In this document: positions 4,602 through 21,089 of the stretch, piece by piece | Position numbering within the stretch: the stretch's first letter is position 1 | Layout of the letters: the number at the start of each line of letters is the position of its first letter | From: Candidatus Heimdallarchaeota archaeon | GTDB lineage: Archaea > Asgardarchaeota > Heimdallarchaeia > JABLTI01 | Reading direction: 5' to 3' | Assembly (NCBI GenBank): GCA_018238155.1 | Contig: JABCTZ010000019.1 | Span: forward strand, 1-64,000 | DNA length: 64,000 nucleotides | Notes under the pieces: generated by a model | Told to the model about the DNA's origin: nothing | Databases searched by the model: none | What the model saw: the letters and a program-made list of their open reading frames with translations, nothing else | Position numbers and translations under genes: made by a program

Positions 4602-5564
4602 TTGGTCTATGGTAAGAATCAGTATCCTACTATCTTACGAGGATTCCGAGGATTTGTTACAATCAGTTGTGTGGTGTTTTCAGAAGAACAACTAAAGAGG
4701 AAAATAGAACCATTTCTCCAGAAATCATTCTTGGGTTCAAAGACTACTGAAGGGTATGGTAGAGTCATTTGGGAATCATGTGAAATCAAGGACTTCACAA
4801 AACCAATTCCTACTGTAACAGTTCCTTTGTTTGAGAAATGTCCTCAATGCAAGAATTCAACAACAATCTATGATAAAAATTCTAAACTCAAACGATGCAC
4901 TTCTTGTAATCAGACATGGCAGTATAAGAAATTCAAAATTCGAGCTGGTTTACGAACAGATTACCCTGAGGAATTACAAAGATTACTTATTGCACTCATG
5001 CTACACGATTTTGTCCACACAGAGAAACACAAAAGTAAGATTTACCAACAAATAACCATAGAAGATGAGAAAATAAGTGAAGCTTGTCTAAACCACCACA
5101 ATGGAGAAGGGTGTACCAATATGCTCTTACCAATAGTGCAGTATTACGATAGACTTGCCTCTTACATCTCTCGAAAGAAACCATTCAAAACCGATTTTCG
5201 ATATAATAAATTAGAAGGGAAAATTGATTTCAAACAGTTGAAACAAGCAATCGAAGAAAAACAAAACAATTATGTAAAACTATATTCCTATATCCACAAC
5301 TCAAAAGAATTAAACAGAATTGTAGAATCAATGTTCTACAGTAATAGCCGTTTGCGAAATCATCTATTAATGATGGTGAACTTGGCAATAAATGATTATT
5401 ATAACCAAAAATTAATAATAACCAATGGAAATATCTCAATGTCGGTAAGTGAAAGAGAAGAGCTCGACACTACTATGGATGCTGAGATGCATTCCTTCAC
5501 TGACCATGATAATGCTGACTCTGAGAGGACAATCACCTCAAAGAAGAGAAGGCTTGAAGCATAG
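4602..5564 (+). CDS. Orphan Cas5-like RAMP-HD nuclease fusion, paralogue of 18483-19466; N-terminally short, with a Zn-ribbon insertion
   Basis: RGFV...FLGSKTTEGYGRV Gly-rich RAMP loop; CPQC...CTSC insert; LMLHDF, CLNHH, YYDRLA and LRNHL HD motifs; clear similarity to 18483-19466. Confidence 0.75.
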   Translation: MVYGKNQYPTILRGFRGFVTISCVVFSEEQLKRKIEPFLQKSFLGSKTTEGYGRVIWESCEIKDFTKPIPTVTVPLFEKCPQCKNSTTIYDKNSKLKRCTSCNQTWQYKKFKIRAGLRTDYPEELQRLLIALMLHDFVHTEKHKSKIYQQITIEDEKISEACLNHHNGEGCTNMLLPIVQYYDRLASYISRKKPFKTDFRYNKLEGKIDFKQLKQAIEEKQNNYVKLYSYIHNSKELNRIVESMFYSNSRLRNHLLMMVNLAINDYYNQKLIITNGNISMSVSEREELDTTMDAEMHSFTDHDNADSERTITSKKRRLEA

Positions 5565-5595
5565 GCAGAGAAGTAGGTAGACAAGAAAATCTACT
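5433..5595 (+). ncRNA. Putative structured ncRNA overlapping the 3' end of the RAMP-HD gene (copy 1)
   Basis: Collinear with 19380-19542 at offset 13947; four hairpins preserved by compensatory and G-U changes. Confidence 0.6.
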
Positions 5596-5607
5596 GGTGA
5601 TAAACAA

Positions 5608-6330
5608 ATGACCTATTGTCCAAGATGTGGTGTAGAAGTGGAAGCAAACAAAATAAAATGCCCACTATGTAATACCACCTTACAACCACTTGATGAAGAA
5701 CAACCAAATTATCAAAGTAAATATCCAGATGATGTTCAAAAGGATGAACAAAAACAACCAAAAGCGAAGAAAAAGAAAAGACTGCTAGCTTTTGAAATTA
5801 CAAGCGTTGTACTAGTTATCCCACTAATAGTATCTATAACAACAAATCTCATAATCGATGGAATAATAACTTGGTCGCTATATCCAATTGCATCACTGCT
5901 ACTTGCTTGGTTTATGATTTCCGCACCACTACTATTTCCAAAGAAAATAGCTATAATCGCAGTGGGTGAATTTATTCCGTTATTAGTTTACTTTTTAGTA
6001 ATTGATATAATAGATAATGGAACATTGAATTGGTATGTAAGAGTTGCCTTGCCAATAATTGCTTCAATAGGAGTAGCAGGGTTCATAATTGCATTTGGAA
6101 CTATAAAATCAAAAAATAAGGGATTGAATATACCCGCTTACATCTTATTTGGAGCAAGTATAATTTGTCTAATAGTTGATGTATGTCTAACAAGCTACAT
6201 TAATAACACACTCGGATTGGAATGGTCATTATATATTCTAGTGCCTGCTGTGCTAACAGGAGGATTCTTACTCTATCTGCATTTCCGTGTCACAAAAAAT
6301 AAGGATCTAAAAAGAAGATTACAATCATAA
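5608..6330 (+). CDS. Zinc-ribbon multi-TM membrane protein (DUF6320-like)
   Basis: YCPRCGV...CPLC N-terminus followed by about 6 TM helices. Confidence 0.7.
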   Translation: MTYCPRCGVEVEANKIKCPLCNTTLQPLDEEQPNYQSKYPDDVQKDEQKQPKAKKKKRLLAFEITSVVLVIPLIVSITTNLIIDGIITWSLYPIASLLLAWFMISAPLLFPKKIAIIAVGEFIPLLVYFLVIDIIDNGTLNWYVRVALPIIASIGVAGFIIAFGTIKSKNKGLNIPAYILFGASIICLIVDVCLTSYINNTLGLEWSLYILVPAVLTGGFLLYLHFRVTKNKDLKRRLQS

Positions 6331-16487: not shown

Positions 16488-16614
16488 GGAACTAGAGGGG
16501 GAAATATATAAATCTTGTGCATCTATACACTACACATGTGTTTATCCTCTGGATCTATTATTTGCTGAAATAGTGTTTCCATTTCCTAAATCTCATTTAT
16601 TGAATAACTGAACC

Positions 16615-17370
16615 GTGAGAAAAATGAAACAAAGTAATCCCTATTCTAAAGAAGAGAAATTTAGAGAACTAATAAAAGAAGCTTACAGAAAAGTCTTCAT
16701 CACGGAAAAACAAAAAACCGCACTTTTAGCAAAATATAATCGAAAGTATGATGGAGACGCTCTGTCCATGCAAGATAGAAATGCTCTGCGAATGCTAAGA
16801 AAAACTATAATACAGTATCGAACTTCTGTGTCTGAGTCTGCAATAGCTGCTCTAAAATTTGAAAGTGTTCTTGAATTACTTTCACTTGTGGATAAAAGCT
16901 CTGGTATTTATTGTCATGTTTGTAAAGTGGGAATATTAGTATCACGAACCGTGAGTTCTTGGATTGTGGGTAAGGATTATGAATTAATTTTAGAACAGAA
17001 ACCTGCGAAAGTATGTAGTAACAATACTTGTAAAAGTACTTCATTTAGCTTAGCAGTAGAGAAATATGAGGATGAGCTAATCAATGAAGTTGAAAAGCAA
17101 TTACGATCGATTAGAATTACAAACACCGAAAAATTAGATCAAAAGAAATGTCCGCAGTGCCGTTCAGAAACGTTAGAAGCAAACCATACTGGTGATGTAT
17201 ACAAATATCATCAGGGATTATATCATATCAAGATCAGGGATGTTCCACTAAAAGCATATTGCAACATTTGTCACTATCAAGAAGTAGGAGAAAATATAAT
17301 AATAGAATTGGAAAAATTAGAAACCCTCTTAGATACTGAAACACTCGAATTGTTGAAATTGGATGGCTAA
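16615..17370 (+). CDS. Protein with two YgiT/MqsA-type zinc fingers (putative antitoxin)
   Basis: CHVC..G...KPAKVC...C and CPQC...IRDVP..YCNIC. Confidence 0.6.
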   Translation: MRKMKQSNPYSKEEKFRELIKEAYRKVFITEKQKTALLAKYNRKYDGDALSMQDRNALRMLRKTIIQYRTSVSESAIAALKFESVLELLSLVDKSSGIYCHVCKVGILVSRTVSSWIVGKDYELILEQKPAKVCSNNTCKSTSFSLAVEKYEDELINEVEKQLRSIRITNTEKLDQKKCPQCRSETLEANHTGDVYKYHQGLYHIKIRDVPLKAYCNICHYQEVGENIIIELEKLETLLDTETLELLKLDG

Positions 17371-17420
17371 TAAATTAAATTCTCTCTGCTAATAACTATA
17401 CTAAACACTGTTATAAATTG

Positions 17421-17597
17421 CTATTTTGTCAACTCAAAAACTATCTTCTTTGACCCATCAAGATAACACAACACTTCTTCTCCAGGTTCAATATTGAGTG
17501 CCTCAACTAATTCTAATGGAATGCTGACCCGATGTGTTCCAGAACTGAAAATTATTTTTCTCTTAAAGATAATTTTAGGATCTTTTTCTTCATCCAT
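17421..17597 (-). CDS. AbrB/MazE/SpoVT-family DNA-binding protein (missing from the ORF track)
   Basis: MDEEKDPKIIFKRKIIFSSGTHRVSIPLELVEALNIEPGEEVLCYLDGSKKIVFELTK*; typical V.IP......L.I.PG..V motif. Confidence 0.8.
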   Translation of the reverse strand: MDEEKDPKIIFKRKIIFSSGTHRVSIPLELVEALNIEPGEEVLCYLDGSKKIVFELTK

Positions 17598-17653
17598 ATC
17601 TAATCACAATAAATGATGGTTTAAAATATTTAAAAATGCTGTTCAAATCGGTC

Positions 17654-17700
17654 AGAGAAGTGCTTATATATGATGACTAACAACATAATAATATGATGAT
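17654..17700 (+). promoter_or_regulatory. Putative BRE/TATA promoter of the cas7 operon with ATATGATGA direct repeats
   Basis: agagaagtgcTTATATAtg; atatgatga at ~17668 and ~17691, between the divergent AbrB and cas7 genes. Confidence 0.45.
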
Positions 17701-17721
17701 TGAGCTAATTGGTGAACAAAA

Positions 17722-18489
17722 ATGAATGTCTCTCGAAACTTTAAGCGAATAAAAATAACCGCAAAAACAGCAATAGCAAAACCCGGGAACGGGCAAATTG
17801 GGGGAGGAAATACCAAGAACTTATTACTAGTTCATAACGGACGAGGGTATGGGCGAGAAGGAAAGAGATACCTAGTGAAGGGATTAAGAGGATTGCTAAA
17901 TCATTCAATGATGGAGCTTGCAAAACAAAAAGGAATAGAAGTATGTCACTCATCGGACAAAAAAGAAACACAAACAGGAGAAAAATTGCTACCAGACGCA
18001 TTTCATCCAAACGGCTCGTGCTATCCAGAAGAGGAGTGCATAAGACACAGATTAATGGGTTCAATGAAAAAACAATCAGTGCTGCGATTTGAACCAGTAG
18101 TGATAGTATCGGATAATATAACAGGGGAGTTCGAAGACGCACAGAAAATACACATAGCAACGGACAAAAGAAATGCGCTAGTGCAAGGAACAAAAAGAAG
18201 CATACAAGATTTCGGAGAAAGATACATAGCAGGAGAATTTACCTATTCGATAGAATTATTGAAAGAAATCTCTCTAGAAGAAATGGGATTCTTACTGAAA
18301 AGTATTCTCTACATGCCAGAATTGCGGTGGGGTGCATCAGGAAATAATGGAGCGGGAAAATTAGAATTAGAAGAAGTAAATCTACAAGAAGTAATGCGCA
18401 CAAGAACTGTCAAGAAAGGAAAAGTGTCCGAAAAAGAAAATGAAAAAAATCTTTGGAAACAAATGGAGGAGGGACTTAAAGCTTGGTAA
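17722..18489 (+). CDS. Cas7-group RAMP (Csm3/Csf2-like) backbone protein
   Basis: KGLRGLL; C...C..HRLMGS...SVLRF Zn region; E..IAGEFTYSIEL; EMGFLL; G-loop WGASGNNGAGKL. Confidence 0.8.
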   Translation: MNVSRNFKRIKITAKTAIAKPGNGQIGGGNTKNLLLVHNGRGYGREGKRYLVKGLRGLLNHSMMELAKQKGIEVCHSSDKKETQTGEKLLPDAFHPNGSCYPEEECIRHRLMGSMKKQSVLRFEPVVIVSDNITGEFEDAQKIHIATDKRNALVQGTKRSIQDFGERYIAGEFTYSIELLKEISLEEMGFLLKSILYMPELRWGASGNNGAGKLELEEVNLQEVMRTRTVKKGKVSEKENEKNLWKQMEEGLKAW

Positions 18490-19466
18490 TAAGGGAAATA
18501 TATACACTAGAAGGAGAATTGCTGTCACCAATTATTGTTTCTTCATCATTGATAAAGAAAGGAAGAATTTGGATTAGAATAGTAAGGGAGTTAGGAACTG
18601 AAGAAAAACCACAAAAGAGCTTCACTGCGAAACTAATAAAGGGGGAACGAAAAGCACCAGACCATGTGAACGCATACAGAGGATTTGTGAGAATAACTAC
18701 AGTTGATTCAAACACATCTCGAGCGAAGAAAAACATTGATCTCTATCTTAACAAAGATTTCCTTGGAAGACGTGTAAACGAAGGATTTGGAAAAGTCAAG
18801 TGGTTGAATTATAAAATAGAAAATTACGTAAGAAATGCAACTGAAAAAAAACAAAAGAAATTCAGAATACGAAAAGGACTAGGACCAAATTATCCAAAAG
18901 AATTGCAAAGATTGCTTAGAGCTCTAATGTTACATGATTTTGTGGAAACAGAAAAACATCCAAGTAAGATATTCAAAGAAATTTCAATTAAGGATGAGGA
19001 AATAAGAGAAGCTTGCTTAAAACATCATAATGTAGGATACTGCAAGAATATACTACTCCCACTGGTCAGGTATTATGACCATTTAGCTGCATACATGAAC
19101 AGAAAAAGCGTACACATAAGAAACTGCAGATATGATTATGAGAATGGAAAAATAGATTTTGAAAAATTAGCTAATGACATAGAAGAAAGACAACAATCTG
19201 CCTATAAATTATATAATTTCATCTATTACTCAAAAGAATTAAGTAGAACAGTGGAAGCAATGAAATTTGGAAAAACATCTCTGCGAGATCATTTGTTGTT
19301 AATGGCTAATCTAGCTATACATGGCTACTGCAATAGGTGGTTAATAATGGAAAATGGAAAAATTGAACTCGAAAAGAAAATCTCATCATCGGTAACAAGA
19401 AAGGATGAACTTGAATGTGCTAAAGATGTTGAGATGCATCTGTTATCTAGTATGAGCAATGCTTAA
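18483..19466 (+). CDS. Cas5-like RAMP fused to a Cas10-type (permuted) HD nuclease
   Basis: YTLEGELLSPIIV first RAMP strand; FLGRRVNEGFGKV G-loop; LHDF, CLKHH, YYDHLA, SLRDH; overlaps the cas7 stop. Confidence 0.8.
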   Translation: MVIREIYTLEGELLSPIIVSSSLIKKGRIWIRIVRELGTEEKPQKSFTAKLIKGERKAPDHVNAYRGFVRITTVDSNTSRAKKNIDLYLNKDFLGRRVNEGFGKVKWLNYKIENYVRNATEKKQKKFRIRKGLGPNYPKELQRLLRALMLHDFVETEKHPSKIFKEISIKDEEIREACLKHHNVGYCKNILLPLVRYYDHLAAYMNRKSVHIRNCRYDYENGKIDFEKLANDIEERQQSAYKLYNFIYYSKELSRTVEAMKFGKTSLRDHLLLMANLAIHGYCNRWLIMENGKIELEKKISSSVTRKDELECAKDVEMHLLSSMSNA

Positions 19467-19542
19467 TCGTAGAGTACGTTCAACTCAATGATCGAGAAAG
19501 TAAAAAACATAACTGGGTAAAAAATAGCAAATAGAAGCTATT
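19380..19542 (+). ncRNA. Putative structured ncRNA overlapping the 3' end of the RAMP-HD gene (copy 2)
   Basis: Covarying stems shared with 5433-5595, continuing 76 nt past the stop codon. Confidence 0.6.
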
Positions 19543-19554
19543 AGAAAGTAAAAT

Positions 19555-19699
19555 TGGCGCCCCGAACGGGATTCGAACCCGTTTATGGTGCTTGATTTTT
19601 TTTCAAGCTTGTCCATCGGGCTCTGCAGCCAAAAGCTTGCAGTGCACATTTCTTGGCTTTGACAGCCGAAGATGATGAGCCGTACTACACTATCAGGGC
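19555..19699 (-). tRNA. tRNA-Asp(GUC) with two BHB introns (37/38: 19621-19659; 48/49: 19583-19610); CCA encoded
   Basis: Acceptor stem GCCCUGA/UCGGGGC-G-CCA, CU-GUC-A loop, T arm ACGGG-UUCGAAU-CCCGU after splicing; both inserts form bulge-helix-bulge motifs. Confidence 0.9.
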
Positions 19700-19772
19700 G
19701 TAATTACTTTTTTTCTGTTCTTTTTTCCTTTTTAATCTTTTCTAAGCTTATGTTTTTGATGTTTGTTTGTTT

Positions 19773-21089
19773 TTAAAATATCTTAATTTCTACTATGTGT
19801 TCTATTGGATATTTATCTGTGTAGTTTCCCGGGTCGATAATATATTCTACTCCTGGGAACCATACTAATTCTGACCAGTAATTCCCTTGATCGGTTTCTT
19901 CATCAAACCATTTTGTAAATCCTACAAAATCAGAACAATTACCTTCTACCCTTGCTTGTGAGTGGATTTCTGTGATGTTATTATAGTTATTGTCTATGAA
20001 ATTATTATTCCATATTGTTGCATTTACTGCTTCCGTTTCTATTCCGTATTGTTCATTGTGCTCTAATATGTTGAAATTGATAGCTGTAATATTTGAACAT
20101 CGTAAAGACATTCCTATAGTATTATCAAAGCAACTATTATTTGTTATAGTACAGAGATCATTCATTAACATTGCAATACCATATTCTCTATTAGATTTGA
20201 AAGCATTGCTTTGACAACAGCTGTTTTTGCTTCTAACCATCAACAACCCAAAATTGCTTCCCGTACAATTGTTTCCAATTATTGTACAGTTGTTTGAATA
20301 ATATACACCTATCCCCCGAAAAGAATTATTAGTTATATTATTGTTTAGTAACCTAATATTTACGCAATCCAAAATACCGATACCATAGTTCCCATTTTCT
20401 ATGGTATTATTTTCCACAATTACATTTGAAGCTGTAAGAATGTCGATATCCTCTGAACCAGTATTTGTGAAATAATTATTCTGAACAGTTACATTATCTA
20501 CCTGACTTAAGGTTATTCCGTAATCACAACTTTGGAAAATATTTCCTTCTACTCTCGAATTATTACTCATATATAATTCAACCCCTCCATCATTATAATT
20601 TCTGTAAAATCTATTGCTTGTAATATTTACAGTTCCAAAACGTACCTCAATTCCTTGCCGGTAATTTCTATCGAAAGAATTATTTGTAATTAGGCATTTC
20701 TCGAGATAACTGATAGAGATTCCAATATCTCCTCCAATTAAATTATTTTTAATAACTATAGTTCCATCTGCAGTGATATTTGATAGTTTTATTCCACATG
20801 ACAGCCTACAATTTTGAATGATAAAATGCTTTGTTACTCCACTAATTTTGATACCATATAGGACTCCTTGCAAGGTATATCCCTCTATAATGTATGGTTC
20901 TTCCTTTGTGCCTTTCCCTGGAAAGTTATATTTCCAGTAGAAATCTGAATCTCTCTTAATCTCTATTATCTCGATATCTTTTCTTAGATTAATCCATCTA
21001 CCCAAGAAAATTCCTGAAATTGTTACAGAACAAACTAATACAACAATTAGAATTACTTTTACTGATTTTTTTAAGTCTCTGAATCCCAC
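19773..21089 (-). CDS. Membrane-anchored right-handed parallel beta-helix (NosD/CASH-like) protein, paralogue 1
   Basis: N-terminal TM, G.GT.E.PYII, many GI.l....N..I..N repeats, GNYWS. Confidence 0.85.
   Translation of the reverse strand: MGFRDLKKSVKVILIVVLVCSVTISGIFLGRWINLRKDIEIIEIKRDSDFYWKYNFPGKGTKEEPYIIEGYTLQGVLYGIKISGVTKHFIIQNCRLSCGIKLSNITADGTIVIKNNLIGGDIGISISYLEKCLITNNSFDRNYRQGIEVRFGTVNITSNRFYRNYNDGGVELYMSNNSRVEGNIFQSCDYGITLSQVDNVTVQNNYFTNTGSEDIDILTASNVIVENNTIENGNYGIGILDCVNIRLLNNNITNNSFRGIGVYYSNNCTIIGNNCTGSNFGLLMVRSKNSCCQSNAFKSNREYGIAMLMNDLCTITNNSCFDNTIGMSLRCSNITAINFNILEHNEQYGIETEAVNATIWNNNFIDNNYNNITEIHSQARVEGNCSDFVGFTKWFDEETDQGNYWSELVWFPGVEYIIDPGNYTDKYPIEHIVEIKIF

Follow-up and report, generated by a model that had tools for sequence, protein, structure and literature searches.

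The ARAMP systems of Asgard archaea were reportedly first described by Makarova et al. in 2020. The accessible sections of PMC8730458 list ARAMP and HRAMP, its counterpart in haloarchaea, as CRISPR derivatives without arrays whose mechanism is enigmatic, and ARAMP is typically accompanied by HNH or PD-(D/E)xK nucleases according to the accessible sections of PMC12669027. Those sections of the two papers make no mention of an ARAMP RNA component, of solo elements or of fusion to host gene starts, and our literature search found no description of an ARAMP RNA component. Here we describe a structured element at the 3' end of an ARAMP-like gene cassette in a 64,000-nt stretch of DNA from a Candidatus Heimdallarchaeota archaeon (contig JABCTZ010000019.1, positions 1 to 64,000; hereafter the window). 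The element is a module of approximately 185 nt that consists of a three-part stem (H1), a middle domain that contains the hairpin H3 within a long-range stem, a terminal hairpin (H4) and a Shine-Dalgarno (SD)-like motif, GGWKAY. Tentatively, we read it as an RNA partner of the RAMP proteins that also serves as the leader of the gene downstream.

The cassette resembles ARAMP in pairing a putative Cas7-like RAMP and a Cas5-like RAMP with a nuclease domain at an array-less Asgard locus, and on these features it fits the catalogued class. It differs in the nuclease, which here is an HD domain fused to the Cas5-like protein (Cas5-HD) and not one of the HNH or PD-(D/E)xK nucleases named in the accessible sections of PMC12669027. 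That the system lacks an array, as the original prediction had proposed, was upheld by the absence of tandem or spaced direct repeats in window positions 1 to 32000. The top 50 Foldseek matches to the N-terminal domain of Cas5-HD were all RAMP subunits of type III, VII or IV complexes (Csm3/4/5, Cmr1, and type VII and type IV Cas7/Cas5), a set of matches that does not distinguish Cas5 from Cas7. The AlphaFold2 model of the protein has a predicted local distance difference test (pLDDT) score of 79, and the best Foldseek match has an E value of 2e-4 with a low TM-score, because the N-terminal domain alone aligns. HD-type residues (H151 D152, H159, H181 H182 and D199, in the pattern H-HD-H-HH-D) are invariant in 19 homologues. 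Cas5-HD homologues are without exception annotated as hypothetical. Cas5-HD had no Pfam domain match, HD included, and its alignment profile gave nothing significant against PDB sequences. The Cas7-like protein had a sub-threshold match to Pfam RAMPs (PF03787), scoring 20.7 bits (E value 6.4e-4) where the cut-off is 22.1. A truncated Cas5-HD paralogue in the same window is 42% identical to the 327-amino acid open reading frame (ORF) of the cassette.

Each of the two Cas5-HD genes ends in a copy of the element. Realignment confirmed that window positions 5433-5595 (copy 1) and 19380-19542 (copy 2) align without gaps at an offset of 13947, and that the stop codons lie at 5562-5564 (TAG) and 19464-19466 (TAA). 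The minimum free energy (MFE) folds of the two 163-nt copies are almost superimposable (z = -2.55 and -2.63). BLASTN recovered approximately 11 copies in the genome to which the window belongs, 75 to 85% identical over approximately 140 nt. Homology among the copies stops sharply at about element position 140 to 150, and the 5' limits range from -506 to +46. A covariance model built from the copies of this genome found 13 copies in it and another 37 spread over 12 related Heimdall-group genomes, a total of 50 copies in 13 of the 61 related genomes, with strong matches confined to one family. Within the genus, nine of 10 genomes had matches, as did the sole sister-genus genome, and two weak matches lay elsewhere in the class. 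No Rfam 15 family reached its gathering score across the whole window, and at E values of 1 or less nothing in Rfam matched either window copy except the neighbouring tRNA. A 15-mer, GATGCTGAGATGCAT, the single pattern tried against IMG/VR, occurred in 24 contigs, none of which was scored by the model (best E 0.16), and these are taken as chance matches.

The fold is supported by strong covariation, both in the alignment fitted to the covariance model and in one of 42 copies that MAFFT produced blind to structure, used as a check on model bias. The original observation thus holds well beyond the two window copies. In the model-fitted alignment of 52 distinct rows, 88.4% of cells were paired, compared with 38 to 43% when partners were slid, there were 247 double-change cells as opposed to 41 to 61, and the covariation score was 0.368 against 0.06 to 0.09. 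The MAFFT alignment gave 81.7% paired cells (34 to 44% slid), 147 double-change cells (30 to 71) and a score of 0.304 (0.06 to 0.11). None of 500 shuffles matched the observed pairing or double-change values, a statistic that overstates independence, since the copies are related and many are orthologous. Compensatory changes occur at 27 to 30 of the 38 pairs, and at several pairs the copies use three or four different Watson-Crick combinations (such as GC 23 and AU 20, or UA 22, AU 9 and GC 7). Independently of any alignment, the MFE z score averaged -2.8 over 43 copies and was under -2 in 30 of them.

Four stems had been proposed from the two window copies. Three of them, H1, H3 and H4, covary across the family, with helices 1 to 3 of H1 paired in 84 to 93% and showing GC/AU swaps. 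The fourth, H2, pairs in both window copies but shows no compensatory change, and its pair 67-75 is paired in only 20% of copies. The family fold has, in place of H2, a long-range stem between element positions 65-73 and 132-139, which shows double changes at all eight of its pairs and encloses two short helices in addition to H3. We conclude that the fold is kept by selection acting on nucleic acid, on the gene strand, in cassette-linked and solo copies alike.

An element that overlaps the 3' end of a gene could in principle lack any function of its own and be simply the C-terminal coding part of a multi-copy gene, decaying slowly and homogenized by gene conversion. H1 does sit in homologous coding sequence, and the early stop of copy 2 is a derived truncation. 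For that reason the original argument that H3 and H4 lie past a stop and so escape protein constraint is correct as to the stops but weak for H3 when copy 2 is taken alone. The same point is made far more strongly by the solo copies and by the variable stop positions: the stops of intact Cas5-HD frames are scattered over element positions 75, 87, 108, 132, 144 and 175, and the fold persists in solos that have no detectable coding remnant upstream. Indels between copies are not multiples of three and break the frame, and Cas5-HD residues 298-327, the part encoded by H1, are predicted to be disordered (pLDDT approximately 30). The sole conserved residues of this tail (IS…DAEMH) coincide with both strands of the outer stem of H1. 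Together with the number of compensated pairs, and with the survival of the element, but not of the remaining gene, at sites orthologous between species, these observations leave a decaying coding end strongly disfavoured and scarcely credible.

The strand on which the structure acts can be read from its wobble pairs. Across paired positions there are 179 G-U pairs on the + strand and 54 A-C pairs, which places the fold on the gene strand, as had been proposed from the two window copies. This excess, G-U being three times A-C, indicates that the fold works on the transcribed strand alone, and it argues against a structure at the DNA level, for example a single-stranded recombination or attachment site marking the end of the cassette. 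A site of that kind would accord with the position of the cassette end next to tRNA gene ends at several sites (in the window, a minus-strand tRNA gene begins 15 nt past H4 of copy 2), with tRNA 3' fragments on the left side of the rpo7 solo of genomes G006 and G002, and with the precedent of integron attC sites, which are likewise conserved in fold rather than sequence. The element is a long multi-helix domain with conserved loops and not a simple imperfect palindrome, and neither an integrase nor an att duplication was identified, so that we consider a DNA-level role very unlikely.

Every full Cas7 and Cas5-HD cassette terminates in the element. The link to RAMP-HD gene ends that had been drawn from the window is therefore general, but it is not limited to two genes: most of the 13 copies in this genome are truncated or solo and lie ahead of unrelated host genes. 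Among the approximately 50 copies, about 16 belong to full cassettes, about five to frameshifted cassettes, about 10 follow 5'-truncated genes and about 13 are solo, meaning that little or no coding remnant is left upstream. Pairing is retained in the solos (H1 86%, middle domain 88%) at close to the values of the full cassettes (93% and 89%). Solo and truncated copies lie nearly always directly before a same-strand gene, many of these genes being essential. In this genome the downstream genes, which were named from their N-terminal sequences, are mostly housekeeping genes, among them eS19, a short eL37-like gene, the small subunit of replication factor C (RFC), ABCE1 and rpo7.

A related element accompanies a second, deeply diverged type of cassette. 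A second Heimdall-group family of Cas5-HD homologues, at 33 to 36% identity, has genes that stop earlier (loci L018 and L020-L026), and these are followed by a conserved non-coding segment at about 0 to 230 nt past the Cas5-HD stop. The segment contains a fully covarying stem with a different sequence in every one of the eight genomes; it measures 9 to 11 bp in six of them, 6 bp in a seventh and 4 bp in the eighth. The stem encloses a conserved loop, (A)UGAAAGNAGAAGGCUUGGA, and is followed by a second variable hairpin and a conserved AUCCUUAA. The motif AGAAGGCUYGGA is common to this loop and to the core of the element studied here. The shared motif and the shared link to the cassette imply that the association of RNA and cassette predates the split of the two families. 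The start of the second-type loop also resembles the 5' handle of CRISPR RNA (crRNA), AUUGAAAG, as does the purine-rich core of the element itself, a resemblance that is a lead and not a test. In a third Cas5-HD subfamily (380 to 450 amino acids; G000:C42:25051-26039 on the minus strand, L004, and also L084, L039 and L038) the gene has a G-rich tail with a weak match to the model, 30 to 40 bits over approximately 100 nt, and this subfamily may carry a variant of its own.

The 3' end of the element follows a recurrent plan. After the conserved …CAUAGGCAGRGAA comes a hairpin of 5 to 8 bp with an A-rich loop, H4, whose sequence varies among copies. At the tRNA site the AATAGC/GCTATT of copy 2 corresponds to GACAGT/ACTGTT in the G005 and G009 orthologues, a difference of two compensatory pairs. 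Recent paralogues in G009 share one H4, which indicates that the hairpin travels with the element. GGWKAY usually stands 0 to 2 nt past the hairpin, even where a minus-strand tRNA follows. A hairpin of at least 5 bp ending no more than 3 nt before the motif was found in 73% of copies, compared with 33% for ordinary SD-led host genes (P about 1e-4 in a positional control, not corrected for relatedness), so that H4 as first proposed stands as an enriched feature but not as a unique one. In 16 of 43 copies the start codon lies exactly 12 nt past the GG, the optimum SD spacing genome-wide; in G000 approximately 17% of long ORFs have GGWGR or GGTTA 9 to 15 nt before ATG, with a peak at 12. The orthologues of the copy 2 tail read GGAGATAAAAC and are followed by the tRNA, and the copy 1 junction, with its SD-like motif and ATG, recurs at the orthologous site in G009.

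Several other identities were considered for parts of the element and rejected. H4 is not a copy of the start of the downstream gene, the two having no similarity (mean z 0.18). It is neither a TATA box nor an intrinsic terminator, as many of its stems contain GC and a T-run is absent. C/D-box small RNAs and hammerhead-type motifs, suggested by CUGA- and UGAUGA-like sequences, were set aside because spacing and core misfit by eye and no Rfam match was obtained. A bulge-helix-bulge splice motif is absent from H1, and the core AGAAGGYTNRGA does not appear to be a fixed guide, as its other genomic occurrences look like ordinary coding sequence.

The host-gene sites raise the question of whether the element is purely a cis-acting expression adaptor, the outward end of a mobile or decaying cassette that serves as a structured 5' leader, through stability, processing or presentation of the SD, to maintain expression of the host gene downstream, and not as an RNA subunit of the RAMP proteins. 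The rpo7-like site is the most instructive in this respect, being occupied by a full cassette in G005, a frameshifted one in G009, a decayed one in G000 and a solo in G006. In four element-free species rpo7 is preceded by a TATA-like box, a small hairpin and GGTTGTGAT, and starts with GTG or TTG. In five occupied species the TATA box, hairpin, SD and GTG/TTG start have all gone, and an apparent ATT start comes immediately behind the GGAGAC…ACA of the element. The loss of the native promoter, SD and start codon of rpo7, the position of solo and truncated copies directly before same-strand genes (eS19, eL37, RFC, ABCE1 and rpo7) and the preserved fold of the solos all accord with an adaptor. A weak hint of transcription points the same way: a small share of the eS19 solo locus was present in one metatranscriptome run, and one 181-nt metatranscriptome contig, lacking strand and ends and possibly derived from DNA carry-over, spans -94 to +87 of a related eS19-type solo. 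No RNA runs matching window positions 16500-20500 were listed. The element shares with structured 5' leaders and intercistronic elements its position directly before an SD and start codon and its retention with the downstream gene; it differs from them in that one element precedes unrelated genes and derives from the end of a Cas gene. A leader alone fails to explain approximately 150 nt of conserved sequence in loops, it leaves unexplained the related element of the second cassette type, and it does not account for full cassettes that have no downstream ORF or only an opposite-strand tRNA. On balance we regard a pure adaptor as somewhat unlikely.

Several details of these sites deserve separate mention. 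The ATT-start rpo7-like gene, encoding RNA polymerase subunit E' (G000:C19 at about 117146 on the minus strand, L005:389-1117:-; also L087, L089, L091 and L095), is preceded by 20 open codons that hold no in-frame ATG, GTG or TTG. To the left of the rpo7 solo lie one or two minus-strand fragments resembling tRNA 3' halves (…GGATTCGA…), at about 3230-3350 of L100 (G006:C33) and about 20-60 of L091 (G002:C290), which may be traces of integration. At ABCE1, G000 and G011 are fused at the ATG, while in G006 the element lies 95 nt upstream and is followed by the native promoter region. A decaying cassette at G000:C39:168481-169653 (L002/L009/L041) has undergone a local inversion, leaving an HD-only remnant of Cas5-HD with the RAMP part on the opposite strand just upstream.

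The comparison with the omega RNA and reRNA of TnpB and IscB (the OMEGA systems of IS200/IS605 elements) suggests a further possibility, in which the conserved part is a scaffold, the adjacent 3' host sequence (often the beginning of an essential, highly conserved gene, or a tRNA end) is a guide, the Cas7/Cas5-HD complex cuts cassette-free alleles, and recombinational repair then copies the cassette into them (homing). The anatomy is alike in several ways: a cis-encoded structured RNA overlaps the effector gene at its 3' terminus, homology stops abruptly at about 140 to 150 where host sequence begins, stand-alone copies occur, and the end of the element can give the next gene its SD and start codon. 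Insertion where highly conserved genes start or tRNAs end would suit homing, as would the divergence at rpo7 between G003 (empty) and G006 (solo), where a 416-nt segment of G006 stands in place of 162 nt of G003; both flanks are 92 to 95% identical and the 5' part of rpo7 is 87 to 89% identical, as expected after import of DNA. The differences are that the effectors here are RAMP and RAMP-HD proteins and not RuvC nucleases, that neither transposase nor transposon ends were found, that the first flanking bases form a hairpin, and that there is no match to Rfam omega families or to RAGATH. The first 25 to 30 nt past the scaffold pair with themselves as H4, which would make a poor guide, and the H4 region bears no similarity to the downstream gene. 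The guide role raised in the original prediction gained no support, the variable parts being paired stems and not a free segment. Moreover, neither a PAM- or TAM-like (protospacer- or transposon-adjacent) motif nor a defined left end of the cassette was found (at rpo7, G005 and G009 have no upstream synteny with the empty-site species), and the single pattern tried gave no copies in viral contigs. We consider homing improbable. If it were true, the SD and start codon at the cassette end would keep the host gene alive, the solos would be irremovable scars, and the TnpB/IscB logic would for the first time have a counterpart derived from class 1 systems.

The reading that we tentatively prefer, at a confidence that stops short of even, is that the element is a ligand or scaffold for the RAMP proteins combined with a leader for the downstream gene, a fixed scaffold rather than a demonstrated programmable guide. 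Transcription would run from Cas5-HD through the element, as part of one mRNA, and on into the gene that follows. The purine-rich core (…GAAGAGAAGGCUYGGAACAUAGG…) and the stems would act as the RNA ligand or scaffold on which both RAMP proteins assemble, and the 3' part, H4 with the SD and often a start codon 12 nt past the GG, would act as a translation leader for the host gene downstream. Such a leader role would explain why the element is retained after the cassette has decayed, and the related element in a cassette type of approximately 35% identity fits an RNA partner. RAMPs of class 1 effectors bind RNA, and the element resembles type I and type III crRNAs, and the solitary crRNA-like RNAs CreA and CreR, in having Cas5/Cas7-type RAMPs as likely ligands and a hairpin at its 3' end. 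It differs from them in having no repeat-spacer unit, being a fixed multi-helix RNA of approximately 150 nt with no free variable segment.

Several observations, to which the relatedness of the copies noted above is to be added, weigh against this combined role. The persistence of solos with no neighbouring cassette could mean that the RNA works without RAMP proteins. SD motifs (17% of genes) and short hairpins (33% of SD-led genes) are common, and the 3' module could be partly generic leader anatomy. The 3' boundary also differs between sites, since at RFC and eS19 the tail looks like the native 5' untranslated region found in element-free species, and direct fusion to a downstream ORF is seen in only about half of the full cassettes.

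The positions of the element and of the adjoining genes are collected in Table 1. The tRNA gene next to the cassette was missed by ARAGORN and scored 28.6 bits against RF00005 (gathering score 29, E 6e-4); its insert probably comprises at least one intron, and CCA is apparently encoded. Upstream of the Cas7-like gene, a 251-amino acid ORF (16615-17370, + strand) has a weak, below cut-off match to a YokU-like Zn-ribbon (E 5.7e-5).

Table 1. Coordinates of the two element copies and of the genes around them in the window
Feature	Position	Strand	Remarks
Copy 2, H1: three-part stem (outer ATCTCA/TGAGAT, middle, inner)	19380..19435	+	In last 29 codons of Cas5-HD gene
Copy 2, middle domain: long-range stem around two short helices and H3	19443..19520	+	Non-coding in copy 2
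Copy 2, H3	19472-19475 with 19483-19486	+	Closing pair swaps GC/UA/CG among copies
Copy 2, H4: AATAGC-8 nt-GCTATT, variable-sequence hairpin, A-rich loop	19523..19542	+	
Copy 2, tail: degenerate SD-like segment tagaaagtaaaat	19543..19557	+	Reaches 3' end of minus-strand tRNA gene
Copy 1, element	5433..5595	+	Covariance model 158.9 bits
Copy 1, H1	5433-5488	+	
Copy 1, long-range stem	5497-5505 with 5564-5571	+	
Copy 1, H3	5525-5528 with 5536-5539	+	
Copy 1, H4	5576-5581 with 5590-5595	+	
SD-like GGTGAT, then ATG (5608), 12 nt past GG	5596..5610	+	Downstream Zn-ribbon/DUF6320 membrane-protein gene
Cas5-like RAMP fused to HD nuclease domain, P0001, 327 aa	18483..19466	+	Foldseek and invariant residues
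Cas7-like RAMP gene, P0003, 255 aa	17722..18489	+	Overlaps Cas5-HD start; syntenic in all full cassettes
Cas5-HD paralogue, P0002, N-terminally truncated, Zn-ribbon insert	4602..5564	+	No Cas7 gene upstream
tRNA gene with approximately 70 nt of inserted sequence	19558..19699	-	Adjoins cassette end; Rfam RF00005

A covarying RNA on every cassette offers a concrete candidate for the missing RNA of ARAMP and makes the question testable. Its persistence before essential genes hints at a strategy of addiction or homing. More broadly, a CRISPR-derived element that outlives its cassette shows how such elements can be drawn into core gene expression, here in the lineage of archaea most closely related to eukaryotes.

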